From assembly GCA_913041415.1 (NCBI GenBank), contig CAJWHS010000002.1, positions 17,994-81,993 of the forward strand: DNA of 64,000 nt. Reading direction: 5' to 3'. Source of the stretch: an uncultured Acidimicrobiaceae bacterium. Lineage in GTDB: Bacteria; Actinomycetota; Acidimicrobiia; Acidimicrobiales; Aldehydirespiratoraceae. A program made the position numbers and the translations under genes. This document shows positions 14,290 to 37,923 of the stretch, in pieces. The notes under the pieces were generated by a model that was given only the letters and a program-made list of their open reading frames with translations, was not told the DNA's origin and searched no databases. Every line of letters starts with the position of its first letter. The first letter of the stretch is position 1.

Positions 14290-14424
14290 ATGGAGCCGAC
14301 CGAGCTCATCGACGCAACCTACACCGACGCCGTCGAGGCCCTGGCGGGCGACGACACGGAACTCGTCGAGGAAGAACTGCTCGTCGAGGAGATCTCCATC
14401 GACGGCATGTGCGGCGTCTACTGA
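14290..14424 (+). CDS. mftA: Mycofactocin precursor peptide MftA (44 aa)
   Basis: Not in the ORF track. GAGGAGGA RBS at 14279-14286, then ATG. Translation: MEPTELIDATYTDAVEALAGDDTELVEEELLVEEISIDGMCGVY. It carries the canonical C-terminal IDGMCGVY. Confidence 0.9.
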   Translation: MEPTELIDATYTDAVEALAGDDTELVEEELLVEEISIDGMCGVY

Positions 14425-14434
14425 CCCAGCGTTC

Positions 14435-14740
14435 GTGACCGCTGCTGCTTTCGACGCCGATCGGGCGTACCGCCTGCACGAGCAGGTGGCGCTGCGCCCC
14501 GAACCCTTCGGGGCGCTCGCCTACCACTACGGCAATCGACGCCTGAACTTCCTGCGCGCCAAGGAACTCGTCACACTCGTCGAGTCGCTCGCCGATCACG
14601 ACTCCGTGCAGGCCGCCTTCGACGCAGCCCAGATCGATCCTCGTCGCTGGCCCAGCTTCGAGCGAGCACTTGCCTCGCTTGCCGCCTCTGACTTCCTCGT
14701 TCCAGAAGGGCGTGATGCGCACGAGGGGGCTGCCGCATGA
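14435..14740 (+). CDS. mftB: Mycofactocin biosynthesis chaperone MftB
   Basis: GTG start 10 nt after the mftA stop. Translation: TAAAFDADRAYRLHEQVALRPEPFGALAYHYGNRRLNFLR. ATGA overlap with mftC. The track merges it into ORF 14168..14740. Confidence 0.85.
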   Translation: MTAAAFDADRAYRLHEQVALRPEPFGALAYHYGNRRLNFLRAKELVTLVESLADHDSVQAAFDAAQIDPRRWPSFERALASLAASDFLVPEGRDAHEGAAA

Positions 14741-15897
14741 CCTTGATCGAAGAGCCCCGCCCCGACATCCTCGTCCTGTCGCCGGTAAAGCAGTCCGGTC
14801 TCGCCGAACAGATGAAACGGGGGCTCGACGCCCCGATCTGTCTCACGTGGGAACTCACCTACGCCTGCAACCTGCAGTGCGTGCACTGCCTGTCGTCGTC
14901 GGGCCGCCGTGACCCTCGCGAGCTCACGACCGAGGAGTGCGAGGCCATCATTGACGAACTGCAACGGATGCAGGTCTTCTACATCAACATCGGTGGCGGC
15001 GAACCGACGATCCGCAAGGACTTCTGGCATCTCGTCCGCTACGCCGTCGACCACGGCGTCGGGGTGAAATTCTCCACCAACGGTTCTGGCATCGATGCCG
15101 AGGTCGCAGAGCAGCTCACCGAGTCGGACTACGTCGACGTGCAGATCTCGATCGATGGCGCCGACGCCGAGACCAACGACCATGTCCGCGGCGCGGGCTC
15201 GTTCGCCACGGCCGTTCAGGCAATGGAGCACCTCCAGGCCGCCGGATTTGAGGGTTTCAAGATCTCGGTGGTGATGACCCGTCACAACATTCCGCAGGTC
15301 GATGAGTTCAAGGCGATGGCCGACCACTTCGGCGCCGAGCTCCGACTGACCCGCTTTCGCCCGTCGGGCCGCGGCGCCGACTCGTGGGAAGAGCTCCACC
15401 CCACCGATCAACAGCAACGTGAGCTCTACCACTGGCTCATGGATCACCCCGACGTGCTCACCGGCGATTCGTTCTTTCATCTCTCGGCGCTCGGTGAGGC
15501 GCTGCCCGGCCTCAACCTCTGCGGCGCCGGCCGTGTCGTGTGCCTGATTGACCCGGTCGGCGACGTCTACGCCTGCCCGTTCGTCCTGCACGACGAGTTC
15601 CTCGCTGGTTCCGTCCGCGACGAAGGCGGCTTCCAGAAGGTGTGGCAGGAGAGCGACCTGTTCACCGAACTGCGCGAACCGCAGTCGGCGGGTGCGTGCG
15701 CGAGCTGTGGCCATTTCGATGCGTGCCAGGGCGGCTGTATGGCGGCCAAGTTCTTCACGGGCATCCCGCTCGACGGCCCCGACCCGGAATGCGTGCTCGG
15801 TCACGGCGAGGAGGCGATGGATTCCGTCGCCCGTGCCGCGGCCAGCAAGGATCACAGCCGCACCACCGTCGTGCTCGGGCGCAAGCCCGTCAGCTGA
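14737..15897 (+). CDS. mftC: Mycofactocin radical SAM/SPASM maturase MftC
   Basis: 386 aa. TYACNLQCVHC radical-SAM cluster motif plus a Cys-rich SPASM C-terminus (CGAG..C..C..C..CQGGC). Confidence 0.9.
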   Translation: MTLIEEPRPDILVLSPVKQSGLAEQMKRGLDAPICLTWELTYACNLQCVHCLSSSGRRDPRELTTEECEAIIDELQRMQVFYINIGGGEPTIRKDFWHLVRYAVDHGVGVKFSTNGSGIDAEVAEQLTESDYVDVQISIDGADAETNDHVRGAGSFATAVQAMEHLQAAGFEGFKISVVMTRHNIPQVDEFKAMADHFGAELRLTRFRPSGRGADSWEELHPTDQQQRELYHWLMDHPDVLTGDSFFHLSALGEALPGLNLCGAGRVVCLIDPVGDVYACPFVLHDEFLAGSVRDEGGFQKVWQESDLFTELREPQSAGACASCGHFDACQGGCMAAKFFTGIPLDGPDPECVLGHGEEAMDSVARAAASKDHSRTTVVLGRKPVS

Positions 15898-15956
15898 ACC
15901 GCTACCGCTGAAGGCTCTCGGCCGACGCCGGCTTAGCCCGGCCGTAGGATCACGCC

Positions 15957-17090
15957 ATGAAGGCTCACGGTCTCAATCCGCGCATCAAGAAGTCGCCATT
16001 CTTCGAAAAGGCCGTCGAGTACGGCGCCACCGAGTTCCATCCCTACAACGGGATGTGGATGCCGGTCGGCTATGACTCGCCGGTCAACGAGTACTGGAAC
16101 GTGCTGGAGCGGGCATCACTGTGGGATGTCGGCGTGCAGAAATGCGTGGAGATTGCGGGCCCCGACGCCGAGGCGTTCATGCAGCTGCTCACCCCTCGCG
16201 ACATCACAACGATCGAGCCCGGCCGCTGCGCTTACGTCTTCCTCACCAACCAGGACGGCGGTGTGCTTAACGACCCGGTCATGCTGCGAATCGCCGAAGA
16301 CCGATTTTGGCTGTCGACCGCCGACTCCGACATGTACCTCTGGGCCAAGGGTGTCTCAGCGTTCGCAGGCCACGAGGTCGAGATCACCGCGCCGCTCGTC
16401 TACCCGATGCAGCTGCAGGGTCCAAAGTCGGCCGAGATCATGGTGGACGTCTTCGGCAAGGAGATCCTCGACCTTCGTTACTACTGGTGGATGCGCAGCT
16501 CGATCGACGGCATCGATGTCGTCATCTCGCGCACCGGCTACAGCTCCGAGCTCGGATACGAGGTGTATCTCCTCGGCGAAGCGCGCGGCGGCGAACTCTG
16601 GGAGATCCTGATGACGGCCGGCAAGCCGTACGGCATCTCGCCCGGCTCACCCAACCGCATCCGCCGCATCGAAGGCGGCGTCCTCGACTACGCCTCCGAC
16701 ATCACCCCTGACGAGAACCCGCTCGAACTCGGTCTTGATCGACTCATCGCCTGGGACACCGACTTTCTCGGCAAGGCCGCGCTCGAGAAGGTGCGCGACG
16801 AAGGCGTTCGTCGCCGCCTGATCGGCCTCTTCCTCGACGGCCCTGCGTTGCAGAAAAACAACGAGCACCGCTGGCCAGTGACGAACGCTGACACGAAAGT
16901 CGGCTCTGTCACGAACGCCGTGCATTCGCCCCGCCTCGACCGCAACATCGCCTTCGCCATGATCGATGTTCCCTTCGACGCCAACGACACAGAGCTCGCC
17001 GTCGAGACGGTCGAGGGGGCACGCAGCGCCGAACGCACGACGCTGCCGTTCATCGCATCGCCACCGGAGAAGACCAAGAAGTTGCGCTGA
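15957..17090 (+). CDS. Aminomethyltransferase-family protein (GcvT fold; DmdA-like THF-dependent demethylase type)
   Basis: RIKKSPFFEKA..LWDVGVQKCVEIAGPDAEAFMQLLTPRD..GGVLNDPVMLRIAEDRFWLSTADSD. Confidence 0.75.
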   Translation: MKAHGLNPRIKKSPFFEKAVEYGATEFHPYNGMWMPVGYDSPVNEYWNVLERASLWDVGVQKCVEIAGPDAEAFMQLLTPRDITTIEPGRCAYVFLTNQDGGVLNDPVMLRIAEDRFWLSTADSDMYLWAKGVSAFAGHEVEITAPLVYPMQLQGPKSAEIMVDVFGKEILDLRYYWWMRSSIDGIDVVISRTGYSSELGYEVYLLGEARGGELWEILMTAGKPYGISPGSPNRIRRIEGGVLDYASDITPDENPLELGLDRLIAWDTDFLGKAALEKVRDEGVRRRLIGLFLDGPALQKNNEHRWPVTNADTKVGSVTNAVHSPRLDRNIAFAMIDVPFDANDTELAVETVEGARSAERTTLPFIASPPEKTKKLR

Positions 17091-17151: not shown

Positions 17152-17949
17152 ATGCCCGGCTACGGCAAGATCGACCACGAATACGGACTCAAGCTCGCCA
17201 CCACCGACCCGGCCGACGATGGTCCGGTCTGGATGGTCAACCTCATGAAGTACAAGGAGGTCGCCGACTACGGCGATGGCGCCGACAGCGGACGATCCGG
17301 ACGCGACGCCGATGACGAGTACACCCCGACCGGCCCGCTCAAGGCGGTCGGTGCCGAGATCGTGTATGTCGCTGAGGTCGACAAAACGCTGCTCGGTGAT
17401 GGAACACAATGGGACCGCGTCGCGGTTGTGAAATACCCGACTCGCCGCTCGTTCATCGAGATGCAGCAGCGCTCGGATTTCAAGGACAAGCACGTCCACA
17501 AGGAAGCCGGGATGGAGATGACCTTAGTGATCGGCTGTCAGCCGATGGAGATCGACGGTCTCCGCGAGTTGGAGAAGGAAAGCAGCTCCTGGGACGACGT
17601 CGAGCATCCTCCCGACGACGAGGATGGCGTCCTCCACGTCCTCCACGTCATCAAGTGGAACGAGGGCGGCCGCAAGCGGATGGAGGGCTACCACGATGCG
17701 GCCTTCGACGTCGCACGGGAACACGGCGCGCGGATCGCCGGGTGGTTCGAGGCCGAAGGGACGATCGTTGGTGATGGCCGAACCTGGGATCAGGTCCGTT
17801 TCAACGAGTTCCCGAGCAGACGCCAGTTCATGGAGGTCGTTGCCGACCCCCGCCGCCTGAAGGGACAGGAAGACCATCGCGAGCCGGCAATGGCCGACAC
17901 CTACACCCTCTTTTGCCGCCCCGTGCTCGACACCCTGCGCAAAAGCTGA
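17152..17949 (+). CDS. Protein with two tandem DUF1330-like domains
   Basis: 265 aa. The pattern V(W/L)M(V/H)..KY/KW..WDRVAVVKYPTRRSFIEM / WDQVRFNEFPSRRQFMEV occurs twice. Confidence 0.65.
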   Translation: MPGYGKIDHEYGLKLATTDPADDGPVWMVNLMKYKEVADYGDGADSGRSGRDADDEYTPTGPLKAVGAEIVYVAEVDKTLLGDGTQWDRVAVVKYPTRRSFIEMQQRSDFKDKHVHKEAGMEMTLVIGCQPMEIDGLRELEKESSSWDDVEHPPDDEDGVLHVLHVIKWNEGGRKRMEGYHDAAFDVAREHGARIAGWFEAEGTIVGDGRTWDQVRFNEFPSRRQFMEVVADPRRLKGQEDHREPAMADTYTLFCRPVLDTLRKS

Positions 17950-17956
17950 CCCGCCC

Positions 17957-18060
17957 AACCGGCGACCCGTCAAGTCGGGGTACTCGTTCGCCTTTGGCTT
18001 CTGTCGGGCTCAGCCGCCGATCGGGTAATACCGGGCGTAGTCCAGTGCCCTTCTGAACTC
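17957..18060 (+). repeat. Direct repeat copy A (~104 bp)
   Basis: aaccggcgacccgtcaagtcggggtactcgttcgcctttggcttctgtcgggctcagccgccgatcgggtaataccgggcgtagtccagtgcccttctgaact. About 8 mismatches to copy B, same orientation. Confidence 0.85.
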
Positions 18061-18130
18061 GGTAGGCGCCATTTCCCAGTCCCTGGGGTCGAGAGCATCG
18101 TCGTGGAGGCAGGAAGAAACTCTGAGCAAA

Positions 18131-18184
18131 CGAATTGATGAATATCGATACGTAAGCTATGCTTAATCGAGCTCTGGGAGACCC
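18131..18184 (+). promoter_or_regulatory. AT-rich promoter/operator-like stretch upstream of the ArsI/CadI gene
   Basis: cgaattgatgaatatcgatacgtaagctatgcttaatcgag. Contains the palindrome TATCGATA (18143-18150) and TAAGC-n3-GCTTA arms. It stands out against the GC-rich surroundings. Confidence 0.35.
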
Positions 18185-18637
18185 ATGCGCCTGCAACTCG
18201 CCCTCGACGTCAGCGACATCGACGAAGCCGTCGACTTCTACTCGAAGCTCTTCGGTGTCGAACCCGTCAAGCGCAAGCCGGGTTACGCAAACTTCGCCAT
18301 CGAGAATCCACCGCTCAAACTCGTGCTGTTCGAGAACCCCGACAACGCAGGTGGCCTCAACCACCTCGGTGTCGAGACCGAGACGTCGCAGCAGGTTGAG
18401 GCGGCTGAAGCCCGCATGGATGCATCCGGCCTCGACACCACCGGTGTCAACGACAACGTGTGTTGCTACGCCGGCAAGACCGAGACGTGGGTGGTCGGCC
18501 CCGACGGTGCTCGTTGGGAGTGGTACGTGAAGACCTCCGACGAGGCGGACTTTGGTACCGACGAGATCGCCGAGTTCAGAAGTGGGAAGACCATGGCCGA
18601 TGTCGCCCTCGGTGACGGCGGGGCGTGCTGCGGCTGA
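18185..18637 (+). CDS. ArsI/CadI-family VOC (glyoxalase-fold) metalloenzyme; candidate C-As lyase
   Basis: FYSKLFGVEPVKRKPGYANF..LNHLGVE..VCCYAGKTETWVVGPDGARWEWY. The vicinal Cys-Cys and the overall pattern resemble ArsI. Confidence 0.8.
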   Translation: MRLQLALDVSDIDEAVDFYSKLFGVEPVKRKPGYANFAIENPPLKLVLFENPDNAGGLNHLGVETETSQQVEAAEARMDASGLDTTGVNDNVCCYAGKTETWVVGPDGARWEWYVKTSDEADFGTDEIAEFRSGKTMADVALGDGGACCG

Positions 18638-19058
18638 CCGACACTCGGTCTCAGCGAGGAATGTCCTTCCACGGCTGGTTCTTGTCGTAACCCGGTTCGC
18701 GGGGAAGGCTGAGCGCCCGCTCGCCGACATTGTTGCGGAGTACCTCGCTTGGCCGTCAAAGCAACCCTGGCGCCAACAAGGACACTCGAGATACCCGCTC
18801 TGACCTGGGGTTTGTAAGTGGGGGATTAGTAGAGTTCGTTTGGCCTTTTGTGGTGCGGATGTTGGGGGCGTGGTCAGCCGGTTGATCACACCGGTTTGGC
18901 AAGATGATCACACGCCTGAGTGGTCATCTTGAGAAGGTGGAGCAGGCTCAGTACGAGACGCGCTTGGTGTGGTCGCGGGGGTGCCGGTCCGCTGAGGCAA
19001 GTGGACACCCGGCGCTCATGCGTCGGCCCTGGTGAACGCGACGATCAACTAGCGCGCG

Positions 19059-19439
19059 TTAACGCGCCAACCGTGCTCCGTGCGGACAAACTCGTCGCGA
19101 CTTTCCGACCATTGCGGGTCCACTCATTCCCACCGGTCCCTCATGTTCGGGGTCGCTCTCGCGGCGGTACAGGCTGAGATAGACCACGCTGGTGGCCCGG
19201 TCCTCGTCGATCACCTCGCACACGAACGTCGAGCACACATGGCGCGAGCGGAGATCGCGACGCGCCTGCCGATGGTTCATCACGGCACTGAGTTCGTCGC
19301 GACCCACCAACCGAGTGCCAGGACTCGCCCAGACACCATCGTTGGTGAAGAGCTCAGGCACCCGGCCCGCTTCGCCGCCGTCGACGAGATGGCAATAGCG
19401 CATCACGAGTCGCTCGCACTCGTGCTCGACACCCTGCAC
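19059..19439 (-). CDS. SnoaL-like / NTF2-fold protein; C-terminus probably frameshifted
   Basis: GTG start. ECERLVMRYCHLVDGGEAGRVPELFTNDGVW. A family-typical ending, DEFVRTEHGWRVNAR*, is readable in the +1 frame with a stop at 19049-19051. Confidence 0.6.
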   Translation of the reverse strand: MQGVEHECERLVMRYCHLVDGGEAGRVPELFTNDGVWASPGTRLVGRDELSAVMNHRQARRDLRSRHVCSTFVCEVIDEDRATSVVYLSLYRRESDPEHEGPVGMSGPAMVGKSRRVCPHGARLAR

Positions 19440-19447
19440 GAACGCTG

Positions 19448-19551
19448 AACCGGCGAACCGTCAAGTCGGGGTACTCGTACGCCCTTGGCTTCTGTCGGGC
19501 TCAGCCGCCGATCGGGTACTACTGGGCGGAATCCAGTGCCCTTATGAACTG
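19448..19551 (+). repeat. Direct repeat copy B (~104 bp)
   Basis: aaccggcgaaccgtcaagtcggggtactcgtacgcccttggcttctgtcgggctcagccgccgatcgggtactactgggcggaatccagtgcccttatgaact. Confidence 0.85.
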
Positions 19552-19649
19552 GACTCGTGCACGGTGAACTGCGAGCGAGGACTGAACTTCGGCACCGTCG
19601 ACCTTCGAGACGCTGGCCCGGTCTGGACGGTTGCCACCCTGTCGCTGGG

Positions 19650-20231
19650 TCAGAGCGTCAGGTACGCAATAATTCGGGCGCGCATCTCGTCGAGCGATGG
19701 TGCGGCTGCGCCCTCCACTTTGGCCTGCTCGTCCCACCGACGCAGCGAAACAGCGGCGTCGAGGTGAGGCAACGCCTCAAAGGCGATGACCTCGTCGTCG
19801 GACATCGGTCCACCCTGGAGGGTTAGCGTGTGGACCGACGCCGACGACAGTTCGTCGTGGTACGACGGCTCCACTGCGCACAGATAGCGCTTTGCGGACA
19901 CGTGAAGCTGCACCGGCATGGTGACGGCCTCGTCGAACCAATTTGCGAGGAATCGGGCGCCGACATTCTCATGATGGAAGTCGGCACGAACCTCCCCATC
20001 GTCGTCTCGTTCGTTTACCAAGAGATGGCCGATGTCGTGGAGGAAGGCAGCGAGCACGGTGGCCTCCCCGGCACCTTCCTCAATCGCGCATCCAGCGCAT
20101 TGTGTTGCATGCTCAATCTGCGTGACGACCTCGCTGTACTTCTCGTCACCGCGCTGTTCGAACAGCCCGATCAACGCATCGGTAATCTCTGCGGGCTGCG
20201 CAAGTTCTCGCCATACCGGCATCGTGGCCAT
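19650..20231 (-). CDS. phnZ: HD-domain diiron oxygenase, PhnZ-like (2-amino-1-hydroxyethylphosphonate C-P cleavage)
   Basis: Start MATMPVW at 20231 shares 1 nt with the phnE stop (TGATG). VTQIEHATQCA..FLHDIGH..HVSAKRYL..LQGGPM pattern. Confidence 0.75.
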   Translation of the reverse strand: MATMPVWRELAQPAEITDALIGLFEQRGDEKYSEVVTQIEHATQCAGCAIEEGAGEATVLAAFLHDIGHLLVNERDDDGEVRADFHHENVGARFLANWFDEAVTMPVQLHVSAKRYLCAVEPSYHDELSSASVHTLTLQGGPMSDDEVIAFEALPHLDAAVSLRRWDEQAKVEGAAAPSLDEMRARIIAYLTL

Positions 20232-21931
20232 CAGATCACCTGCTTTCGGACCCAAGCCGAGAGGATTTCGATAGCGTAAACCAACACAAAGATACAAATC
20301 AGCAGGCCACCAACGAGTTCGAATTGGAAGAGACGGGTTCCCTGCACAAGCGGGAAGCCAATGCCACCCGCTCCGACGATCCCGAGAACCGTCGACGCTC
20401 GAAGTGACACATCCAGAACGTACAACGAGTGGCCAATGATCGCCGGCATCGCCTGGGGAAGTACCGACGTGAATGTCTCCTGCAGACCCGAGGCACCGGT
20501 CGCGCGGACGCCATCACGAGGCCCCTCCTTGATTTCCTCAATCGAGTCAGCGAACAACTTCGTGGAGAAGCCGTAGAGCCCGATGGCCAGAGCCAAAACA
20601 CCCGGCTGCGGACCGAGGCCCAGGGCAGCGACGAAGATCACCGCAACAATCAGGTCGGGCAGCGCACGGACGCCAAGTATGAACGAGCGGGCTGCGTTGT
20701 AGACCCAGCGGGCCGGCGCGACATTGCGAGCCGCCAGCATTGCAGTCGGGATGGCGAAGACCAGCGAGAGACCAGTCGCCGCAAAACCCATCTGGATGGT
20801 TTCAACGAGGAGCTCTCCCCAGCGGTCCTCCCACCAATCCATGTTCCTCGGGATCAGGTTGTTGAAGATCTCGGGGATCTGCGGAAACCCCTGGATCATC
20901 TCGATGAATGACAGATCGGGGACAGTGAAAGCCAGGATCAACATGGCCAGGCAGGAACTCCCAAAGATCCACATGACGATGCGGTCGCGGTTCCAGGGCG
21001 GGCGGAGCGCCTCTCGGTCGAACGGGAGCTCAGCACTCGCCCCATCAGCGGGACGGAAGTCCTCCGCCTCGACCGTGTGGCCGAGACCGAGGGTGGCGAG
21101 CACGCTCTTCTTCTTGGGTCCATCGTCGTGGCCGAGGATGACCGCCCGGACCCTGCTCGAGATGATCTCGACAATGGCGATCAAGACGATGATCACGAGG
21201 GTGACACCGAGCAACTGCTGATAGTCGAGGCTGCCCTGGTGGGCTCGGATCTGCAGGCCGATCCCGCCAGCCCCCACGAGGCCCAGCAGCGTCGAAGCAC
21301 GGAAGTTGATATCGAGCCGGTAAAGCGAGATGGCGATGAAGGAAGGGATGACCTGAGGGAGGATGCCCGTGGTGATCTCCTGGAGTCGACCGGCACCACT
21401 GGCGACCACGCCTTCGCGCGGCCCGGTATCAATCTGCTCGATCGAGTCGGAGAACAACTTGCCGAGCATGCCGATCGAGTGGAGCCCGAGAGCGAGCACG
21501 CCTGGGAGCACACCGATCGAGTACACCCGAACGAAAATCAGGGCAAGGATCAGCTCCGGCAGGGCACGGGTCACCACGATGAACGCACGGGCCGCGCCAC
21601 GGACGAAGCGGTTCTTGACGACGTTGTTCGCCGAGAGAAAAGCGATCGGGACCGCAAGGAAGACGCCGAGTGCGGTGCCGGCGAACGCCATCAGAAAGGT
21701 GTCGAGCGCCGCCTCCCACACGAGCCGCGGCTCGTCGATGCGAGGCGCCCACATCCGGTCGAGCAGGTTGAAGAGGTCCTGCCGCTCGGTCCAGAAAGTC
21801 AGCGGATTCACCCCGATGTCCCACATGCTGTAGAGACATCCGACGAAGAAGGCGACAAAGGTCGCAGTGAGGAGACTGCGTCGCCGCGAAACCGGCGGCC
21901 TGACTTGTTGCTTGGAGTCGGAAGTGACCAT
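20231..21931 (-). CDS. phnE: Phosphonate ABC transporter permease; two fused PhnE modules
   Basis: 566 aa. The EAxxxxGA-type permease module occurs twice (REGVVASGAGRLQE and RDGVRATGASGLQE). Confidence 0.85.
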   Translation of the reverse strand: MVTSDSKQQVRPPVSRRRSLLTATFVAFFVGCLYSMWDIGVNPLTFWTERQDLFNLLDRMWAPRIDEPRLVWEAALDTFLMAFAGTALGVFLAVPIAFLSANNVVKNRFVRGAARAFIVVTRALPELILALIFVRVYSIGVLPGVLALGLHSIGMLGKLFSDSIEQIDTGPREGVVASGAGRLQEITTGILPQVIPSFIAISLYRLDINFRASTLLGLVGAGGIGLQIRAHQGSLDYQQLLGVTLVIIVLIAIVEIISSRVRAVILGHDDGPKKKSVLATLGLGHTVEAEDFRPADGASAELPFDREALRPPWNRDRIVMWIFGSSCLAMLILAFTVPDLSFIEMIQGFPQIPEIFNNLIPRNMDWWEDRWGELLVETIQMGFAATGLSLVFAIPTAMLAARNVAPARWVYNAARSFILGVRALPDLIVAVIFVAALGLGPQPGVLALAIGLYGFSTKLFADSIEEIKEGPRDGVRATGASGLQETFTSVLPQAMPAIIGHSLYVLDVSLRASTVLGIVGAGGIGFPLVQGTRLFQFELVGGLLICIFVLVYAIEILSAWVRKQVI

Positions 21932-21978
21932 CTCGGAGACGACCTTGGCCTAGGTGGTGGAATCGGAATCGAGGAGCG

Positions 21979-22833
21979 TCATGAGAGGTCAGTCACCGAC
22001 GTGCCGTACTCCGAGATCTTGCGACCCTCGGGATCAAGCCGTCGGTAGACATCCATCACTCGCTCTTGCGTGAGGTCATCATCGACCGGGCTGTCGAGCA
22101 CGATCTTGCCGTCTTGGAGCCCGATGAGCCGGCTGGCCCACCCCATGGCGAGGTCGACCTGATGCAGGCTGCAGACAACGGTGATCTGGTCTTCGATACA
22201 GGCACGGAACAACAAGTCCATGACCTGACCAGAGATCTCCGGATCAAGCGAGGCAACCGGCTCGTCGGCAAGGACGATCTTGGGCTTCTGCATCAACATG
22301 CGGGCGATCGCAACGCGCTGTTGCTGGCCGCCCGACAGGGTGTCGGTGCGCTGAAAGGCACGATCGCCAAGCCCCACCCGTTCCAGCTGGGCGAGGGCCT
22401 CCTCGCGGAAGCGTTTCGGGTACGAGAGGACGCCGAAGCGAGGTCCTCGCAGCCGACCAAGTGCGCCGGAGAGCACGTTCTCCAGGCACGACACGCGACC
22501 GACGATGTTGAACTGCTGAAAGACGAAACCGACCTCGGTGCGCAGCGCCCGAAGCTTTGCGCCCTTGAGTTGATCGACGCGTCCGCCGAGCACGGTGACC
22601 GACCCCGCCGTCGGCTCGTGAAGCCCGTTCAGGTGCCTGAGCAGAGTCGACTTGCCAGATCCCGACAGGCCAATGATGACGCAAAGTTGGCCCTCGGGCA
22701 CCGAGAACGTGACGTCGTCGAGGGCGCGGACCCGCCCGTTGTCGAAGGTCTTGACGAGGCCCTCGACTTCCACCACCGGGGGAAGATCTGCATGGTTCGG
22801 AGTGGGGCGGATTGCGCCCTCGACGTCAGTCAT
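21979..22833 (-). CDS. phnC: Phosphonate ABC transporter ATP-binding protein
   Basis: GLSGSGKSTLLRHLNGL, FQQFNIVGRVSCLENVL, LSGGQQQRVAIARML. Confidence 0.85.
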   Translation of the reverse strand: MTDVEGAIRPTPNHADLPPVVEVEGLVKTFDNGRVRALDDVTFSVPEGQLCVIIGLSGSGKSTLLRHLNGLHEPTAGSVTVLGGRVDQLKGAKLRALRTEVGFVFQQFNIVGRVSCLENVLSGALGRLRGPRFGVLSYPKRFREEALAQLERVGLGDRAFQRTDTLSGGQQQRVAIARMLMQKPKIVLADEPVASLDPEISGQVMDLLFRACIEDQITVVCSLHQVDLAMGWASRLIGLQDGKIVLDSPVDDDLTQERVMDVYRRLDPEGRKISEYGTSVTDLS

Positions 22834-22847
22834 GGTTTCTCAATTCC

Positions 22848-26453: not shown

Positions 26454-26516
26454 GAAGCGGATCGTACGGCGCCGAGGTGAACCCGCTCCTAAGTTTGGGT
26501 GAAGCTACGAAGAAGC

Positions 26517-26532: not shown

Positions 26533-26553
26533 TGACTGCTTCATGATGATTGC

Positions 26554-26763: not shown

Positions 26764-26768
26764 GCCAC

Positions 26769-29720: not shown

Positions 29721-30655
29721 CCCTTGCCGACGTTCTCGCCACGACCGGCCCGGCACCAGCGTCTGAGGTCGCCGTCGAACTGACGCCCATCCTTGACGAG
29801 TCGGCAAAGCGTGAGATTCGTCGAGCGGTACTCACCGCCATTGCTGTGCCGGGCTACCAGGTGCCGTTCGGTTCGCGAGAGATGCCGGTCGCCCGTGGAT
29901 GGGGTTCCGGTGGCCTCCAAATCTCCCTTGCGGTCGTCGGGGACGACGATGTCGTAAAGGTCTATGACCAAGGTGAGGACGGTGGCGTGAACGCAGCCAA
30001 CCTTCGTCGACTGATCCGTCGTTCCGAGGGCGTCAAGACCACAACCGACGCCCGTGAGGCTTCGGTGATCCAAACCCGCCACCGGGTTCCCGAGGATGAA
30101 CTGATCGCGGACCAGATCCTTGTCCTTCAAGTGCCTGTGCCCGAACCCCTCCGCGGGATTGAGCGCGACATGAACGAACTGCGTCGAATGCACGCCGAGG
30201 CCGACTACGCCCGGATGTGGGTGAGTCTCTACGAAGACATCGTCCGCAATGGTGTCATCACCCGAACAACCGGCTACCCGTGCCTCGTCGACGGGCGCTA
30301 CGTGATCGCAACCACCCCCATCCCGCGATGGGACGTTCCGCCGCTCCATCAAGCGAAGTTCCTCTCGCTGTTCGGCGCTGGTCGCGAAAAGCGGATCTAC
30401 GCGATCCCGCCGTACACGGATGTGGAGCCACTGACCTTCGATGACGTCCCCTTCGAGGTCGAGGAGGTCAGCGAGCCGTGCCGCTGCGGCCTGATCTGTC
30501 CCGGTGACGAACAGGGGGCTTATCTGGTCGAGCTCCCGGCACAGGACGGCACCTCGCAGTGGGTGTGCAGCGACACCGACTGGTGCACCCGGCATCGCGT
30601 GGCCAACGGCGTGCTCGGCAGCGAAGCCCTCGACGACGCCGACGAACTCTGGTGA
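29717..30655 (+). CDS. phnJ: C-P lyase catalytic radical-SAM subunit PhnJ
   Basis: AVPGYQVPFGSREMPVARGWGSGGLQ, and the Cys cluster CRCGLIC..C..C near the C-terminus. Confidence 0.9.
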   Translation: MTLADVLATTGPAPASEVAVELTPILDESAKREIRRAVLTAIAVPGYQVPFGSREMPVARGWGSGGLQISLAVVGDDDVVKVYDQGEDGGVNAANLRRLIRRSEGVKTTTDAREASVIQTRHRVPEDELIADQILVLQVPVPEPLRGIERDMNELRRMHAEADYARMWVSLYEDIVRNGVITRTTGYPCLVDGRYVIATTPIPRWDVPPLHQAKFLSLFGAGREKRIYAIPPYTDVEPLTFDDVPFEVEEVSEPCRCGLICPGDEQGAYLVELPAQDGTSQWVCSDTDWCTRHRVANGVLGSEALDDADELW

Positions 30656-30665
30656 AGGGAAGGCT

Positions 30666-31505
30666 GTGAGCGATTGGATGCTCCGAGTCGAAGGACTCGG
30701 CAAGATTTACGGACCGGGCGGCCCGGCTGACGTTGAGGGCACCGGCCCCGAGTTCGGTCGATCGGTCAGCCCATCGACCGGCGCAGTCGTCGGCTGCTGG
30801 GACGTCGGCTTCGAGGTGGCGGCGGGCGAAGCGCTCGGCGTGATCGGTGAGTCCGGATCTGGCAAGTCGACCGTTATGCGCTGTATCGCTGGCGACCAGA
30901 CCGCGACGACGGGTTCGGCTCACATCCGAACCGTCGACGGTGGTGAGGCCGACGTCATGGGGTTCGACCCGTCCCGCCGCCGATCGCTGCGGGTCGACGA
31001 GCTCGCAGTGGTCTATCAGGATCCCTCGGAGGGGCTTGATCTCCACGTGTCAGCGGGCGGCAACGTCGCCGATCGCCTCACCGCCGCTGGATGGCGCAAC
31101 TTCGGCGACATCCGCCGACGGGCCGCAGAGCTTCTGGCCCGGACCGAGGTCCCACTCGATCGTATGGATGATCCTGTCTCGACCTTCTCAGGAGGTATGC
31201 GCCAGCGGGTCCAGCTCGCCAAGGCGCTCGCCAACCAGCCGTCGGTGCTTTTGCTCGACGAGCCGACTACTGGCCTCGACGCCTCGGTCGCGGCCGGAGT
31301 GCTCGACCTCATTCGCGATCTGCTCCAGGAGACTGGCGTCGCCGCGGTGGTTGTGAGCCACGACTTCGCCGTCATCGAGATGTTGACCCGCCGCTCACTC
31401 GTGATGCATCACAGCCGCGTCGTCGAGGCCGGCCTGACTGACCAGTTGCTCGAAGATCCGCAACATCCGTATAGCCAGCGCCTCGTCGGCGCTGCCCGGG
31501 GGTGA
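30666..31505 (+). CDS. phnK: C-P lyase system ATP-binding protein PhnK
   Basis: GTG start after GAAGGGA (alternative ATG at 30678). GESGSGKSTVMRCIAGD, LSGGMRQRVQLAKAL. Confidence 0.8.
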   Translation: MSDWMLRVEGLGKIYGPGGPADVEGTGPEFGRSVSPSTGAVVGCWDVGFEVAAGEALGVIGESGSGKSTVMRCIAGDQTATTGSAHIRTVDGGEADVMGFDPSRRRSLRVDELAVVYQDPSEGLDLHVSAGGNVADRLTAAGWRNFGDIRRRAAELLARTEVPLDRMDDPVSTFSGGMRQRVQLAKALANQPSVLLLDEPTTGLDASVAAGVLDLIRDLLQETGVAAVVVSHDFAVIEMLTRRSLVMHHSRVVEAGLTDQLLEDPQHPYSQRLVGAARG

Positions 31506-32266
31506 CAATGCCGTTTCAGAACCTTTTGACCGTTCGAGGGCTCACGAAGTCCTTCACGCTCCACGCCGTTGACGGGCGTGTTGTCCGGGGCCTTTGCGGG
31601 GTCGACCTTGACATCGTGGAGGGCGAACACGTTGCGCTTGCCGGCCGATCTGGGGCCGGTAAGTCCAGTTTGTTGAAGTGCGTACACCGCACCTACGTCG
31701 CCGACGATGGGGTCGTCGTGTATCGCCGGGCCAACGGAGACGCCGTCGACCTGTTGTCGATGAGTGACAGCGACGTTGCTGATCTGCGCTCCCAGGAGAT
31801 CGGCTATGTCTCGCAGTTTCTCCGCGCTGAACCCCGACGGGGGGTGCTCGACGTTGTCGCTGGTGCCGCTCGACGAATGGGAGTCGACGAGGGCGAGGCC
31901 CGAGACCGAGCCGCCGACGTACTCCGCCGGGTCAACATTGATGAGTCTCTCTGGTCGACGTATCCGACGTTGCTTTCCGGCGGGGAGAAACAGCGGGTCA
32001 ATCTTGCGGCCGGCATCGTTGAGGCGCCGCGTCTGTTGTTGCTCGACGAGCCCGTATCTGCGCTCGACCCGGCGAACCGGGTCGCTGTGCTCGACATCCT
32101 CTCCGACCTCACGTCGCGTGGAGCCACAGTGCTCAGTGTGTTCCACGACATCGACGCCATGCGCGTCCTCGCCGACCGGGTGGTCGTGATGGAGGACGGC
32201 GTCGTCGTCGATCACGGCGAGGCCAATCAGGTCCTCGATCGCAACCTTGAGCGCGAGCTTGTCTGA
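31502..32266 (+). CDS. phnL: C-P lyase system ATP-binding protein PhnL
   Basis: GTGA overlap with phnK. LTKSFTLHAVDG..GRSGAGKSSLLKC..LSGGEKQRVNLA. Confidence 0.8.
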   Translation: MTMPFQNLLTVRGLTKSFTLHAVDGRVVRGLCGVDLDIVEGEHVALAGRSGAGKSSLLKCVHRTYVADDGVVVYRRANGDAVDLLSMSDSDVADLRSQEIGYVSQFLRAEPRRGVLDVVAGAARRMGVDEGEARDRAADVLRRVNIDESLWSTYPTLLSGGEKQRVNLAAGIVEAPRLLLLDEPVSALDPANRVAVLDILSDLTSRGATVLSVFHDIDAMRVLADRVVVMEDGVVVDHGEANQVLDRNLERELV

Positions 32267-32299
32267 CCCCCCCGATCACTCCTCCCGAACGAGATCACC

Positions 32300-33475
32300 A
32301 TGACCACTGCCATCACCGACGTTCGCGTCGTTCTACCCACTGCCATCACCGACGACGCGACGGTCATTATCGACGAAGGTCGTATCGCCCAAATCACGAC
32401 CGGCAGGGCGCCCGCCGGTGCCCGCTCCGGCCACGGTGCGCTGCTGTTGCCCGGGCTCGTCGATAGCCACAGTGATGGCCTCGAGAAGGAGATTGCTCCT
32501 CGTCAGACCGTCCGCTTCCCGCTCGACTATGGCCTCCGCTCGTTTGAGGGTCGGGTCAGAGCGGCCGGTATCACCACGATCTGCCATGGCGTTGGTTATC
32601 AGGAGAAAGCCAAAGCGGGTCGCTCCGTCGAGCGTGCTCGAGAGACGGTTGCTGCGATCGCCGCCCGCAGCCGCGAGGTTGACACCGGCGTCGACCATCG
32701 CGTGCTGTACCGGTTCGAGGCTCGCGACCCCGAGGCGCTCACGCCGCTCCTGGAGGACCTCGGCTCGTCCCCCAAGAACGACGTCGCTCCGCTCTTGAGC
32801 TTCGAGGACCACACACCTGGGCAGGGTCAGTTCCGAGATATCGCCCAGTACGAAGCCGCCGTCGATCCGACCACGCTTCCTGAAGGCGAGACCGTGCAGT
32901 CCTATGTCGCCCGCCTCAAGGCTGAGGGTGATGCCATGCTCGCCAGCCGCCAAGAAAACCGGGCCCGGCTCGCGCCACTTGCCCGCCGGGGAGATCTCCG
33001 CTTGCTGGCCCATGACCTCGAGACCATCGATGACGTGGCCGAGGCAGTTGATGCCGGTGCGACGATCGCCGAATTCCCGCTTTCCATGGACGTGGCCAAG
33101 CACGCGAAAGCCGCTGGCATGACGACGGTCATGGGGGCGCCCAATGCACTTCGTGGACACTCACACTCGGGCAACACGTCGGCTCGGGACCTTGTCGTTG
33201 CCGGTCTCTGCGACGTGCTTGCGTCGGACTACATGCCGTCGGCGATGCTTGCCGCTGCGTTCGCCATGGCTGCCGCCAACGTCTGCACCTTGCCCGAAGC
33301 GGTCGCGCTGATCACCTCAGGGCCGGCGACGATGATCGGTGAGGTCGATCGCGGCCGTATTGAAGTCGGTGCGCTTGCCGATCTGATCCTGGTCGATGAT
33401 TCTGGCGCATGGCCGGTCGTGCTCGATGTTCGTCGAGCGGCTGATCATCCCGTTCGCGGCGACATTGGCGCATGA
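32300..33475 (+). CDS. phnM: PhnM (alpha-D-ribose 1-methylphosphonate 5-triphosphate diphosphatase)
   Basis: LPGLVDSHSDGLEKE..SFEDHTPGQGQF..MGAPNALRGHSHSGN..SDYMPSAML. Confidence 0.85.
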   Translation: MTTAITDVRVVLPTAITDDATVIIDEGRIAQITTGRAPAGARSGHGALLLPGLVDSHSDGLEKEIAPRQTVRFPLDYGLRSFEGRVRAAGITTICHGVGYQEKAKAGRSVERARETVAAIAARSREVDTGVDHRVLYRFEARDPEALTPLLEDLGSSPKNDVAPLLSFEDHTPGQGQFRDIAQYEAAVDPTTLPEGETVQSYVARLKAEGDAMLASRQENRARLAPLARRGDLRLLAHDLETIDDVAEAVDAGATIAEFPLSMDVAKHAKAAGMTTVMGAPNALRGHSHSGNTSARDLVVAGLCDVLASDYMPSAMLAAAFAMAAANVCTLPEAVALITSGPATMIGEVDRGRIEVGALADLILVDDSGAWPVVLDVRRAADHPVRGDIGA

Positions 33476-34290
33476 ACCGGCCTCATCCAGCGCTCACCGC
33501 CTCCGCTGAGGCTGCGTCGATGGCGTGGGCCGATGCCGTGGGCCGCTTCAGTCGCGACGAACTTCTCGAGTTCGTCGCAGACGGCGCTGATGGAACGCCA
33601 TCGTCTCGAATCGATGTGATGGTCGAGGCTGAAATCCTTCGCGCTGTCGAGCCCTTCGGCATTGATGTTGTGAGCGAAGAGATTGGGCACGTTGACAATG
33701 GATCTAGCGTGGCCATGGTCGTGGATCCTGTTGACGGAACCGGCAATGCGACCGCAGGCATTCCAATTTCGGCCTTTACGGCGGCGATCGCTGTGGATGG
33801 CCGTTTCACCGAAGGCCTGACTCATTGGTTTGCTGATGGTCGCCGTTGGTGGGCTCACGTCGATCAGCCGATTGCGCCATCGACGTCGGGTCGCACAGAG
33901 TTAGACGGAGCGCTGCTCTCGATGATTCGACCGAAGGGCAGTGGGGACGGGTTCCTCGCAGTAGCAAGGCGGGCATCTCGCATTCGCGTGCTCGGCTCAT
34001 CGTCGATCGAGGCCGCCCTTGTTGGTGACGGTGTTCTTGACGCATTTGTCGACGCTGGCAGTCGTACCCATCGTCTTGTTGATCTTGCGGCGGCGACGGT
34101 GATCGTCGAACGGGCCGGTGGCGTTGTTCTCGACGTGCATGGCGAGCCCATTGTCTTCACGACCGAGATCGACACCCGCTGGTCAGGTGTCGTGGCGGCC
34201 ACCCCGGAGCTCGGTCGAGCGATCGTTGATGAGGTTCGGTCCACGCTGAAGAACGGCGGAGAACGCGTGGTCGATGAACCTCTGAGCTGA
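33472..34290 (+). CDS. Inositol monophosphatase / FBPase-family phosphatase
   Basis: ATGA overlap with phnM. VSEE..VVDPVDGTGN and DLAAATVIVERAGG motifs. Confidence 0.7.
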   Translation: MNRPHPALTASAEAASMAWADAVGRFSRDELLEFVADGADGTPSSRIDVMVEAEILRAVEPFGIDVVSEEIGHVDNGSSVAMVVDPVDGTGNATAGIPISAFTAAIAVDGRFTEGLTHWFADGRRWWAHVDQPIAPSTSGRTELDGALLSMIRPKGSGDGFLAVARRASRIRVLGSSSIEAALVGDGVLDAFVDAGSRTHRLVDLAAATVIVERAGGVVLDVHGEPIVFTTEIDTRWSGVVAATPELGRAIVDEVRSTLKNGGERVVDEPLS

Positions 34291-34348
34291 GGTCTGAGGT
34301 TTCCGGCCGAACAGGCCCTGACCCTTTCGTGGCGTGACGTTTCCGGGG

Positions 34349-35059
34349 TCAGTCGCGAGCGATGCCGACGAGTTGGAGGACGTACCAGAACAGCGTCATC
34401 ACTGAGCTGAAGAGCGCCAGGGCGCCAGCGACGTGCGCCGCAACCGGGAACTGCCGGATGATCGTCTGGGTCTGGTAGAGGATCGCAGCGCCCGTGAGCG
34501 CAACCATGCCGACCGAGAACCACACGCCGAGGCTGAGACCGAAGACGATCGCACCGACGATCAGGGCGAGCGCTGCGACGAAGCCGTACATCACGATCGG
34601 ACGAAGGAACGAGAGATCCTTGCGGGTGACGACGGCGACGATCGTGAGGCCGGCGAAGGCGACCGCCGTGATCAGCCCGGCCGCGGCGACCGAGGTGGCG
34701 CCGTCATCGGCGACCCGGAAGAAGTAGTGCAGCATCGGCGCGAAGAGGATGGCGTAGAGCCCGGCCGAGCCGAACAGGGCGGCGTACTGACGCTGCGGGT
34801 TGAGCAGGTCGGCGGCAGCATTGGTGACGATCCACTGGCCCACCATGAAGCCGCCGAGAATGAGCAGCCACGAGAAGCCGCTGCCACGCACGAAGTTGTA
34901 GATGCCTTCGGCGATCGGTGTGTTGAGCAGGACGGCTTCGATGCCGGCGAAGGCAACGATGGCACCGAGAAGGTGCTGGTAGACGCGGATGACGAAATCG
35001 CCGCGGGTGGTTTCGTCGAGCTGGATAGCCGGTCGAAGATCGACGTCGCTGTACGACAT
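34349..35059 (-). CDS. Bax inhibitor-1 / YccA-family membrane protein
   Basis: 236 aa with multiple TM helices. FVIRVYQHLLGAIVAF N-terminal signature. Confidence 0.75.
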   Translation of the reverse strand: MSYSDVDLRPAIQLDETTRGDFVIRVYQHLLGAIVAFAGIEAVLLNTPIAEGIYNFVRGSGFSWLLILGGFMVGQWIVTNAAADLLNPQRQYAALFGSAGLYAILFAPMLHYFFRVADDGATSVAAAGLITAVAFAGLTIVAVVTRKDLSFLRPIVMYGFVAALALIVGAIVFGLSLGVWFSVGMVALTGAAILYQTQTIIRQFPVAAHVAGALALFSSVMTLFWYVLQLVGIARD

Positions 35060-35232: not shown

Positions 35233-36405
35233 GTGGCCAACCAGTGGTTCGAGACCGTCGCCATCGCCCAGCAACGTGCGAAGAAGCGTCTGCCCAAGTC
35301 GTCCTATGGCGCGATCGTCGCAGGGGCCGAGGCCGGCGTCACGATGCGCGACAATTTTTCCGCCTTCGATGAGCTCGGCTTCCGTCCCGTCACCGCCGGC
35401 CAGCCCGCCGAGCGGCAGATGGACACGACGATCATGGGTCAACCGTCGTCGATGCCGGTCATGATCTCGCCCACCGGCGCTCAGGCCATCCACCCCGACG
35501 GTGAGGTCGGCGTGGCCCGAGCCGCTGCCAACCGGGGCATCCCGATGGGCCTGTCGTCGTTCGCGTCGATGCCGATCGAGGACGTCATCGAGGTCAACGG
35601 CCAGACCTTCTTCCAGATCTACTGGGCCGGCGACAAGGACTCGATGGTTGCTCGCATGGAGCGGGCGAAGGCCGCCGGTGCCGTCGGCATGATCCTCACC
35701 CTCGACTGGTCTTTCAGCCACGGCCGAGACTGGGGCAGCCCCCAGATCCCGCAGTCGTTCACGATCAAGGAACTCCTTCCGCAGGTCCCGGCGGTGATCC
35801 GCAAGCCGAGGTTCATGTGGTCCTGGATCAAATCCGGGAGCATCCCGAAACTCGGTGTGCCGAACTTCGTAACCGACGGGTCGAAGCCGCCGGTTTTCTT
35901 CGAGGCCTATGGCGCCTGGATGATGACACCTCCGCCGACCTGGGAGGACGTGGCCTGGCTGCGCTCGCAGTGGGACGGCGAGTTCATGGTCAAGGGTGTC
36001 GTCCGGGCCGACGAAGCCCGGCGCGCCGTCGACGCCGGCGTTACCGCCATATCGGTTTCCAACCACGGCGGAAACAATGTCGACTCTGCGCCCGCTTCGG
36101 TCCGGGTGCTGCCCGAGATTGCCGCAGCCGTCGGCAACGACATTCAGGTCGTGATGGACGGTGGTATCCGCCGTGGTTCCGACGTCGTGAAGGCCCTGTG
36201 CCTCGGCGCCGACGCGGTCCTCATCGGTCGCGCGTACCTGTGGGGCCTTGCCGCCAACGGCACCGCCGGCGTCGAGAACGTGCTCGACGTCATCCGGGGC
36301 GGTATCGACGCCACGATGCGAGGCATCGGGGTCGGATCCATCCATGACCTCACGGCCGATCACGTCATCGTGCCCGACGGCTTTTCGCCGCCGCGGATCC
36401 GCTGA
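35233..36405 (+). CDS. mftD: Pre-mycofactocin synthase MftD (FMN-dependent alpha-hydroxyacid-oxidase fold)
   Basis: GTG start. ANQWFETVAIAQQRAKKRLPKS..ISPTGAQAIHPDGEVGVARAAANRG..LTLDWSFSHGRDWGSPQIP. Confidence 0.85.
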   Translation: MANQWFETVAIAQQRAKKRLPKSSYGAIVAGAEAGVTMRDNFSAFDELGFRPVTAGQPAERQMDTTIMGQPSSMPVMISPTGAQAIHPDGEVGVARAAANRGIPMGLSSFASMPIEDVIEVNGQTFFQIYWAGDKDSMVARMERAKAAGAVGMILTLDWSFSHGRDWGSPQIPQSFTIKELLPQVPAVIRKPRFMWSWIKSGSIPKLGVPNFVTDGSKPPVFFEAYGAWMMTPPPTWEDVAWLRSQWDGEFMVKGVVRADEARRAVDAGVTAISVSNHGGNNVDSAPASVRVLPEIAAAVGNDIQVVMDGGIRRGSDVVKALCLGADAVLIGRAYLWGLAANGTAGVENVLDVIRGGIDATMRGIGVGSIHDLTADHVIVPDGFSPPRIR

Positions 36406-36470
36406 CGTTCACACCGCCGCCGTCTGCGGCTTGGTATCAAGCCGGAACACATCCCGCCTACGCTCGCCCG

Positions 36471-37133
36471 GTGGCCCGGCTCGGCGATCTCACGAACCCC
36501 GACGTAGGGGAGGGGCGCGTTCTCGTGCTGCCGGTTGGCGCCACGGAGCAACACGGCCCGCATCTGCCGCTCGACACCGACGCTGTCATCGCCCGCACGG
36601 TTGCTGAGTTGGCGGCCGGTCGAGTCGCCGCCGCAGTCGTCGCCCCGGCGATTGCGATCGGAGCCTCGGGCGAGCACGCCGGTTTCGCAGGAACGCTCTC
36701 GATCGGCACCGAGGTGTTGGCGGCGATGATCGTGGAGATCGTCCGCACCGCCGGTCCGGAGTTCGACCGCGTCGTCATCGTCAACGCCCACGGCGGCAAT
36801 CTCGACGCCGTCCGTTCCGCAGCGGCGACCTGCGAGTACGAAGGTCGACCGATCGGCGTGTGGCACGCCCGTCTCGACGACGCCGACGCCCATGCCGGTT
36901 CCATCGAGACGTCGGTCATGCTCGCCATCGATCCGCAACGGGTCCGGTTCGACCGAGCTGAGCCCGGCAACACCGCACCGCTGCGCGAGATCCTCGACGA
37001 TCTCCGCACCGGCGGCGTCGCAGCTGTCTCGCCCAACGGTGTGCTCGGCGATCCGACCGACGCCACGCCGGCCCGAGGTGAGGAGATCCTCGCCGGGTGG
37101 GTTCACGAGGTCGTCGCCCTTCTGGAATCATGA
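36471..37133 (+). CDS. mftE: Mycofactocin precursor peptidase MftE (creatininase family)
   Basis: VLVLPVGATEQHGPHLPLDTD..VIVNAHGGN. Confidence 0.8.
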   Translation: MARLGDLTNPDVGEGRVLVLPVGATEQHGPHLPLDTDAVIARTVAELAAGRVAAAVVAPAIAIGASGEHAGFAGTLSIGTEVLAAMIVEIVRTAGPEFDRVVIVNAHGGNLDAVRSAAATCEYEGRPIGVWHARLDDADAHAGSIETSVMLAIDPQRVRFDRAEPGNTAPLREILDDLRTGGVAAVSPNGVLGDPTDATPARGEEILAGWVHEVVALLES

Positions 37134-37137
37134 AGGC

Positions 37138-37923
37138 ATGAGTGAGCCCGTCGCGATCGTCACCGGAGCCGGACGCGGGATCGGTGCGGCCACCGTCGCC
37201 GCCCTCGTCGCCGACGGTTGGTGGGTCGCCGCCGTCGACCGGTGTTCGCCTCACCCGGCGATCGCCTACTCGATGGCCTCCTCGGACGACCTCGCCGACG
37301 TCGTGACGGCAGCCGATGGAAACGCTGCCGCCTTCGAAGCCGACGTATCGGTCGGCGCCGCAGTAGCGGAGGTTGTCACCTCGGTCACTGACGCACGTGG
37401 TCGGCTCGACGCCGTTGTTTGCGCAGCGGGGGTCGTTGCCGGTGGGTCGCCTGCCTGGGAGATCGACGACACCGAGTGGGACGCCGTCATCGGAACCGAC
37501 CTGACCGGAGTGTTCGCCACCGCCCGAGCCGCCGTTCCTGCGCTCCTCGCTGCACCGCACGGACGCATCGTCACCGTTGCGTCGGCTGCCGGCTCACTGG
37601 GATTACGCCACATGAGCCACTACGCCGCTGCCAAACACGGCGTCATCGGCTTCACCCGATCGCTCGCCGCCGATCTCGCCGGCACGGGCGTCACCGCCAA
37701 CGCCGTCTCGCCCGGCTCGACCATCACCGCCGGGCTCGACGAGTCGGCCCGCATCTACGGCCTCGAGTCCGTAGAGGCGTTCATCCGCCATCAAGAGCCA
37801 CTCGGTCGACTGATCGCCCCGGACGAGATCGCCGCTGCGATCGCCTGGCTGTGCAGCCCGGCGTCGTCGGCAATCACTGGTGCCGTGCTTCCCGTCGATG
37901 GTGGCATGACCGCCACCCCCTGA
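37138..37923 (+). CDS. Mycofactocin-coupled-type SDR oxidoreductase
   Basis: ATG 37138, 4 nt after mftE. VAIVTGAGRGIG..VDRCSPHPAIAYSMASSDDL insertion..YAAAKHG. Confidence 0.75.
   Translation: MSEPVAIVTGAGRGIGAATVAALVADGWWVAAVDRCSPHPAIAYSMASSDDLADVVTAADGNAAAFEADVSVGAAVAEVVTSVTDARGRLDAVVCAAGVVAGGSPAWEIDDTEWDAVIGTDLTGVFATARAAVPALLAAPHGRIVTVASAAGSLGLRHMSHYAAAKHGVIGFTRSLAADLAGTGVTANAVSPGSTITAGLDESARIYGLESVEAFIRHQEPLGRLIAPDEIAAAIAWLCSPASSAITGAVLPVDGGMTATP

Follow-up and report, generated by a model that had tools for sequence, protein, structure and literature searches.

We analyzed a 64,000-nucleotide stretch (hereafter the window; positions 17,994 to 81,993 of contig CAJWHS010000002.1, assembly GCA_913041415.1) from the metagenome-derived genome of an uncultured Acidimicrobiaceae bacterium, which carries genes for the cofactor mycofactocin in two groups. 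Genes were called by third-position GC content, and the called genes were scanned against NCBIfam and Pfam. The first group, on the forward strand, begins with mftA (14290-14424), which encodes a precursor peptide of 44 aa (TIGR03969, 49 bits, cut-off 25); the C-terminus of the translated peptide reads IDGMCGVY and contains the conserved IDGxCGVY core. It is followed on the same strand by mftB, the peptide chaperone gene (14435-14740; TIGR03967, 103 bits, cut-off 33), for which the identical gene call was obtained on independent contigs, and by mftC, which encodes the radical SAM/SPASM maturase (14737-15897; TIGR03962, 632 bits, cut-off 265). Both mftB and mftC adjoin mftA, as in the mycofactocin system described by Haft (2011). 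The second group, also on the forward strand, consists of mftD for premycofactocin synthase (35233-36405; TIGR03966, 635 bits, cut-off 471), mftE for the peptidyl-dipeptidase (36471-37133; TIGR03964, 274 bits, cut-off 172) and a gene for a mycofactocin-coupled short-chain dehydrogenase/reductase (SDR) oxidoreductase (37138-37923; TIGR04504, 302 bits, cut-off 250), whose start codon lies 5 nt past the mftE stop. The distance from mftC to mftD is 19.3 kb.

An earlier note on this DNA had described the same split into mftABC and mftDE plus SDR; its coordinates proved exact, and all six genes exceed their NCBIfam cut-offs. The five core Mft proteins are all full length, with scores 1.3- to 3-fold over the equivalog cut-offs. 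The note did not mention a further gene at 44840-45952 (forward strand), which encodes a Zn-dependent nicotinoprotein alcohol dehydrogenase (Zn-ADH) of a mycofactocin-associated family (TIGR03989, 517 bits, cut-off 440). Together with the SDR, it represents the mycofactocin-specific nicotinoprotein oxidoreductases of the window.

The functions of these genes are predicted from family membership. MftB and MftC would decarboxylate and cyclise the C-terminal Val-Tyr of MftA, MftE would release 3-amino-5-[(p-hydroxyphenyl)methyl]-4,4-dimethyl-2-pyrrolidinone (AHDP), and MftD would oxidise AHDP to premycofactocin, which would then become the electron acceptor for the adjacent SDR and Zn-ADH. With the canonical Mycobacterium cluster mftR/mftABCDEF (Rv0691c-Rv0696; PMC3023750, PMC7491314), the window shares an MftA ending in IDGMCGVY, MftB to MftE above the equivalog cut-offs, and the associated nicotinoprotein SDR and Zn-ADH. 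In contrast to that cluster, its genes are non-contiguous, with a BI-1 gene on the opposite strand and variable cargo between mftC and mftD; MftF, a TetR-type MftR and a GMC-type MftG are missing from the 64 kb; and the host is a marine member of Acidimicrobiales.

The spacer between mftC and mftD

MftD was used to scan the GTDB species representatives, which gave 34 loci (loci and contigs are designated here by L numbers). The window proteins were mapped on these loci by tblastn, and the closest ones were aligned by blastn. Three sister metagenome-assembled genomes (MAGs), L009, L010 and L016, have 93-95% nucleotide identity to the window and are colinear with it up to position 18106 and again from position 34331. 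Their gene order is mftABC, DmdA-like, DUF1330-like, CotH(-), DUF4956(-), BI-1(-), mftD, mftE, SDR, APH(-), DhlA and Zn-ADH, where (-) marks the opposite strand, and their gap between mftC and mftD is about 5 kb. Where they have 1.86 kb encoding CotH and DUF4956 (identified with Pfam), the window has a flexible island of 16,224 bp (18107-34330; breakpoints by blastn against these three genomes) with genes of phosphonate and organoarsenic catabolism. Directly before the island, the window retains the final 31 codons of a CotH-like gene together with its stop (18010-18105, reverse strand), reading HDDALDPRDWEMAPTEFRRALDYARYYPIGG before the stop, and 30 of these 31 residues match the C-terminus of CotH in L010, where the gene is intact and encodes 474 aa. 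The other sister genomes likewise have the whole gene, as does the more distant L022. We read this stub as the scar of a replacement, in which the CotH/DUF4956 state is ancestral and that of the window derived; since the window keeps the 3' stub of CotH, the polarity is given, and the phosphonate/ArsI block, a recent acquisition, arrived together with a deletion. The composition of the island also deviates from its surroundings. Its mean GC content at third codon positions (GC3) is 0.74, compared with 0.81 in 36 backbone genes (Mann-Whitney p=3e-7), and the tetranucleotide correlation drops from about 0.98 to 0.92 within it.

Comparison with a wider set of relatives places this replacement in an older layout. 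We defined the clade of the window as the 14 loci with at least 77% MftD identity (L009-L022). In all 14, the gene directly before mftD is that of a BI-1/YccA-family membrane protein, on the opposite strand (34349-35059 in the window; PF01027, NF007765). Four loci (L011, L014, L018 and L021) fail to reach mftC, and the mftC-mftD junction was seen in the remaining ten. In L017 (81% MftD identity), BI-1 alone separates mftC from mftD, the spacer of L022 (77%) consists of the DmdA-like, CotH, DUF4956 and BI-1 genes, and other cargo is present at the junction in L013, L015, L019 and L020; L012, where mftC falls beyond the contig end, could not be placed. A second variable junction is located between mftD and mftE, where 1-6 kb of unrelated genes are found in L012, L014, L015 and L019-L022. 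The mft core and its redox partners are kept intact across the 14 species-level relatives, and the Zn-ADH gene follows the SDR/APH genes at a short distance in L010, L011, L016, L017, L019-L022 and L043. In L043, a 4.48-Mb Acidimicrobiales contig, the set mftE-SDR-ZnADH stands wholly alone.

This comparison shows that mftABC and mftDE-SDR are old modules in Acidimicrobiales, predicted to be separate transcription units, and that their junction behaves as a hot spot. Since BI-1 lies on the opposite strand between mftC and mftD across the clade, the two halves would already have been transcribed separately, and therefore the insertion should have broken no operon and left the pathway undisrupted. 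Scans for consensus sigma-70 promoters and intrinsic terminators around both modules gave nothing above shuffled sequences and were uninformative on operon structure.

A second block is likewise absent from the sister MAGs (40004-44750). It contains genes for a circularly permuted ATP-grasp protein, an alpha-E protein, a transglutaminase and a proteasome-type protein as well as an ORF of 105 aa, and its GC3 is 0.73, compared with 0.81 for the backbone. The block splits DhlA from Zn-ADH, and hence the mftDE-SDR module from Zn-ADH, in the window, which is not the case in L010, L011 and L016; the start of the block is present in L015.

The locus very probably represents an intact mycofactocin system in separate modules, with the 16.2-kb island recombined into a pre-existing variable spacer. 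Its modules would be mftA-mftB-mftC (with the DmdA-like gene), the opposite-strand BI-1, mftD-mftE-SDR and, a little further on, Zn-ADH. The spot between the first two modules would be a hypervariable site at which the ancestor held the CotH-like and DUF4956 genes. Recombination of the island into this site would have deleted all of CotH except its last 31 codons and stretched the distance between mftC and mftD from about 5 kb to 19.3 kb, leaving the pathway undisturbed. Understood in such a way, the split needs no special biology: in textbook manner, a flexible island would have entered a hypervariable site, which happens to lie within a cofactor locus that was modular beforehand. Several points weigh against this account. 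There is no integrase or transposase among the annotated genes and no tRNA at the island, and the borders of both extra blocks have no direct or inverted repeats of at least 9 nt. With none of these features at the island, the insertion probably proceeded by homologous recombination through the conserved flanks. Moreover, deletion of mftF in M. smegmatis abolished both the glycosylated forms and the aglycones (PMC7491314); unless the genome encodes MftF at another place, the system might therefore fail to operate in the manner described.

Other explanations of the split appear far less probable. Presence or absence of the island does not by itself give a polarity, and the sister genomes might have deleted it from an ancestral state preserved in the window; this is contradicted already by the truncated CotH 3' stub of the window, with the gene intact in the sisters and L022, and the deviant composition of the island also speaks against it, so that we regard such a deletion as very improbable. 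It is also unlikely, to nearly the same degree, that the system is decaying and non-functional. Fragmentation of the cluster and the local lack of MftF, MftR and MftG would fit with decay, but the core proteins are full length, above their equivalog cut-offs (1.3- to 3-fold) and conserved in the 14 species-level relatives, and the dedicated SDR and Zn-ADH have been retained. A chimera of assembly or binning, which may come to mind for a metagenome-derived genome, deserves hardly any credence, as several independent assemblies agree on the order across both junctions and already contradict it. The stretch from mftA to mftE is found, with the same gene order and identical proteins, on an independent Tara contig of 22.9 kb, MftC and MftD identical to those of the window occur on several independently assembled marine contigs, and both junctions are covered by further independent contigs in identical order. 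The genomes closest to the window are Tara Oceans MAGs of marine origin, named 'Acidimicrobiaceae bacterium'.

The earlier note had suggested that the locus may have been broken by insertion of a phosphonate/arsenic block. This holds for 16.2 of the 19.3 kb, in view of the sister genomes without the block, the CotH stub and the composition; the word broken does not hold, as mftC and mftD were already apart with the opposite-strand BI-1 between them. The tetranucleotide profile that the note proposed indeed sets the island apart (r=0.92, with GC3 of 0.74 versus 0.81), and the synteny comparison it called for revealed that mftC and mftD are not adjacent in the clade loci that show the junction, at least BI-1 being between them. 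It had further considered that an arrangement shared by all relatives would speak for an ancient organisation rather than an insertion; the split junction is in fact old and shared, but its cargo is variable.

MftF and the form of the cofactor

Mycofactocin is regarded as an obligately glycosylated cofactor, with a glycosyltransferase always alongside MftC. Among the plausible ORFs of the 64-kb window, none matches GT2 or TIGR03965 (MftF) or has a TetR_N or GMC domain. A profile hidden Markov model built from four Acidimicrobiales MftF proteins gave no match at E<=10 to the six-frame translation of the window, and tblastn likewise gave none, which bears out the initial observation that the 64 kb contain no MftF, TetR or GMC gene. 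With the same profile and threshold, no MftF was detected in 233 kb around the mft genes of the 14 clade loci, including the genes inserted between mftD and mftE; the search in relatives covered 10 kb on each side of mftD.

Other mft clusters of Acidimicrobiales (L023, L024, L030, L033, L045, L046 and L052) have the same gene families and the same pairing of mftE with SDR as the window, and differ from its clade in having mftF nearby. An authentic MftF, encoded at most a few kb away from the cluster, was identified in L023 (TIGR03965, 342 bits, cut-off 280). In L024, L030 and L033 (MftD identity 63-74%), homologues of it are encoded at a similarly short distance from mftD, and contigs retrieved apart from the MftD scan (L045, L046, L052 and L053) have the order mftE-mftF or mftE-SDR-mftF. 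In the clade of the window, SDR is followed either by a convergent APH-family gene or immediately by Zn-ADH, and MftF is missing from its syntenic place throughout. The APH-family phosphotransferase gene of the window (37927-39105, reverse strand; PF01636, 81 bits) is convergent with SDR, is kept in L009-L012, L015-L017 and L022, and sits at the position held by mftF in the mftE-SDR-mftF loci (L046, L052 and L053). We found no evidence that links it functionally to mycofactocin.

Some of the other Acidimicrobiales clusters also have inserts of their own. In L046:1-11380 (GCA_965193565.1) and L052:1-4384 (GCA_035937605.1), an electron-transfer module is located inside the mft cluster, between mftC and mftE-SDR-mftF. 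It comprises two OYE/Pyr_redox_2 oxidoreductases, the alpha and beta subunits of electron-transfer flavoprotein (ETF), a FixC-like ETF-quinone oxidoreductase and a FixX ferredoxin, and might take the place of MftG in the re-oxidation of mycofactocinol.

Lack of MftR and MftG is ordinary, since the TetR regulator (as well as MftD and MftE) was not universal in the survey of Haft 2011 (PMC3023750) and about 25% of mftC genomes have no mftG (PMC11778925). The case of MftF is different: in the genomes of the same survey, MftC, MftB and MftF occurred 'always together or not at all' (PMC3023750). There is a somewhat better than even chance that mftF, perhaps with a regulator, is located elsewhere in the genome as a further dispersed module and that the cofactor is glycosylated as usual. 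The dispersal of the system in Acidimicrobiales and the company of MftF with MftC in every genome surveyed argue for such a location, yet every other lineage sampled has mftF next to other mft genes and none of the 14 clade loci does. That MftF is absent genome-wide has roughly one chance in three; it is accordingly possible, if not to be expected, that MftF has been lost in the clade and that the cofactor is the non-glycosylated premycofactocin (PMFT/PMFTH2) or is modified in a different way. This would agree with the lack of any profile match in the window or in the 233 kb around the mft genes of the 14 loci, with an opposite-strand APH gene abutting SDR, unlike in other Acidimicrobiales, whose mftF is at most a few kb away from mftD/mftE, and with a core and redox partners that are intact across the clade. 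In addition, carveol dehydrogenase reduces the PMFT aglycone in vitro (PMC7491314). Against a loss stand the 10-kb reach of the search on each side of mftD, the scattering of mft genes in Acidimicrobiales (such as the lone mftE-SDR-ZnADH of L043), the strict co-occurrence in the Haft survey and the M. smegmatis mftF deletion mutant, which makes no PMFT (PMC7491314).

We consider it rather doubtful that an abundant marine clade of Acidimicrobiales runs an MftF-free mycofactocin system, with a cofactor that is either non-glycosylated or decorated by an unrelated enzyme, for example the APH-family phosphotransferase. If true, such a system would break the co-occurrence rule of MftC, MftB and MftF and would differ from the situation in M. 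smegmatis, in which the cofactor disappears when MftF is lost. Should the clade truly have no MftF while MftA to MftE and the dehydrogenases are under selection, the aglycone would be sufficient as a natural cofactor, and the proposed role of the glucan chain in cell retention and enzyme recognition would need rethinking. Overall, the window has a variant organisation of a known system, in which the lack of MftF in the neighbourhood is the one unusual point.

Genes of the island and its neighbourhood

The island opens with ArsI (18185-18637, forward strand), followed on the reverse strand by a SnoaL-fold gene (19059-19439), PhnZ (19650-20231), PhnE (20231-21931; TIGR01097), PhnC (21979-22833; TIGR02315) and PhnD (22848-23885; TIGR01098). 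A PhnY-like dioxygenase gene lies on the forward strand (24024-24842), and a small conserved ORF with no Pfam match (24832-25305) and a second PhnM (25338-26453) are next to each other on the reverse strand. The rest of the island is on the forward strand and includes the PhnF regulator (26769-27503; TIGR02325), the PhnGHIJKLM carbon-phosphorus (C-P) lyase genes (27548-33475; TIGR03293, TIGR03292, PF05861, PF06007, TIGR02323, TIGR02324 and TIGR02318) and an IMPase-family gene (33472-34290). The C-P lyase pathway set is complete for the core PhnG-M, the PhnCDE transporter and PhnF, with several scores under the strict equivalog cut-offs; neither PhnN nor PhnP turned up in the NCBIfam and Pfam scans. 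Judging from this content, the island would provide phosphonate uptake (PhnCDE), two routes of C-P cleavage (the oxidative one by PhnY/PhnZ, and C-P lyase), control by PhnF, and ArsI, a combination typical of adaptation to low phosphate. No evidence was found for a functional link between the island and mycofactocin.

Like the phosphonate-utilisation islands of marine bacteria (phnCDE and phnGHIJKLM, PhnY/PhnZ), this one is strain-variable and deviant in composition, combines a transporter, a regulator and two catabolic routes, and has a gene set that recurs in other contexts. It differs from them in having no mobility genes, att-like repeats, PhnN or PhnP, and in carrying a C-As lyase gene, ArsI. 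The nearest taxon-named homologues of its PhnJ belong to MAGs of Actinomycetota/Acidimicrobiales (76-85% identity), and metagenome matches without a taxon name reach 86-97%. A similar set (second PhnM, PhnF-PhnM, IMPase and PhnDCE) is carried by L050 and L051 in different order and neighbourhoods: in L050, which additionally has PhnY, PhnZ and a glyoxalase/ArsI-type gene, it adjoins AbiEi/AbiEii, Schlafen-AlbA and T5orf172-type genes, and in L051 it adjoins PadR and PhoU-type genes. Since a similar phn set stands in these different contexts, the island would be a phosphonate-scavenging module that circulates within marine Acidimicrobiia, and its case would illustrate the movement of phosphonate and organoarsenic catabolism among them. 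Beside the PhnM homologue, the phn islands of L050 and L051 have an ORF that corresponds in position, and roughly in size, to the small conserved ORF of the window. A metagenome scan with the second PhnM gave only two short contigs. A population variant of the island is seen in L048:1-3968 (JGI Ga0181579_10027141), where a second PhnM of 97% identity is followed by a PhnY-like/PhnZ-like pair and not by PhnF.

The remaining genes of the spacer lie between mftC and the island. The list given in the earlier note was right as to the DmdA-like, phosphonate and BI-1 genes; its ArsI "cassette" is a single gene, and its tandem DUF1330 protein is a weak match. The DmdA-like gene (15957-17090, forward strand) encodes a GcvT-family aminomethyltransferase that scores 338 bits with NF009133, under the DmdA cut-off of 410. 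It shares the strand of mftC, begins 59 nt after that gene, and follows it directly in both the window and the sister MAGs. It is kept after mftC in L009, L010, L016 and L022, is set about 1 kb apart from it by extra sequence in L013 and L015, and is also present in L012, where mftC is beyond the contig end. Relatives with as little as 77% MftD identity still have the gene downstream of mftC, and it may therefore share a transcript with mftABC. The next gene (17152-17949, forward strand), kept in close relatives, encodes a two-domain protein that contains an internal repeat (E 2.5e-12) and bears a weak resemblance to DUF1330 (PF07045, 19 bits against a gathering score of 23).

Upstream of the mycofactocin genes, the sister MAGs L009, L010 and L016 have about 1.05 kb extra between the gene for the FAD subunit of xanthine dehydrogenase and the upstream SDR, which is missing in the window at 13398-13400. 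The sole tRNA gene of the window is a tRNA-Sec gene at 60854-60949 on the reverse strand.

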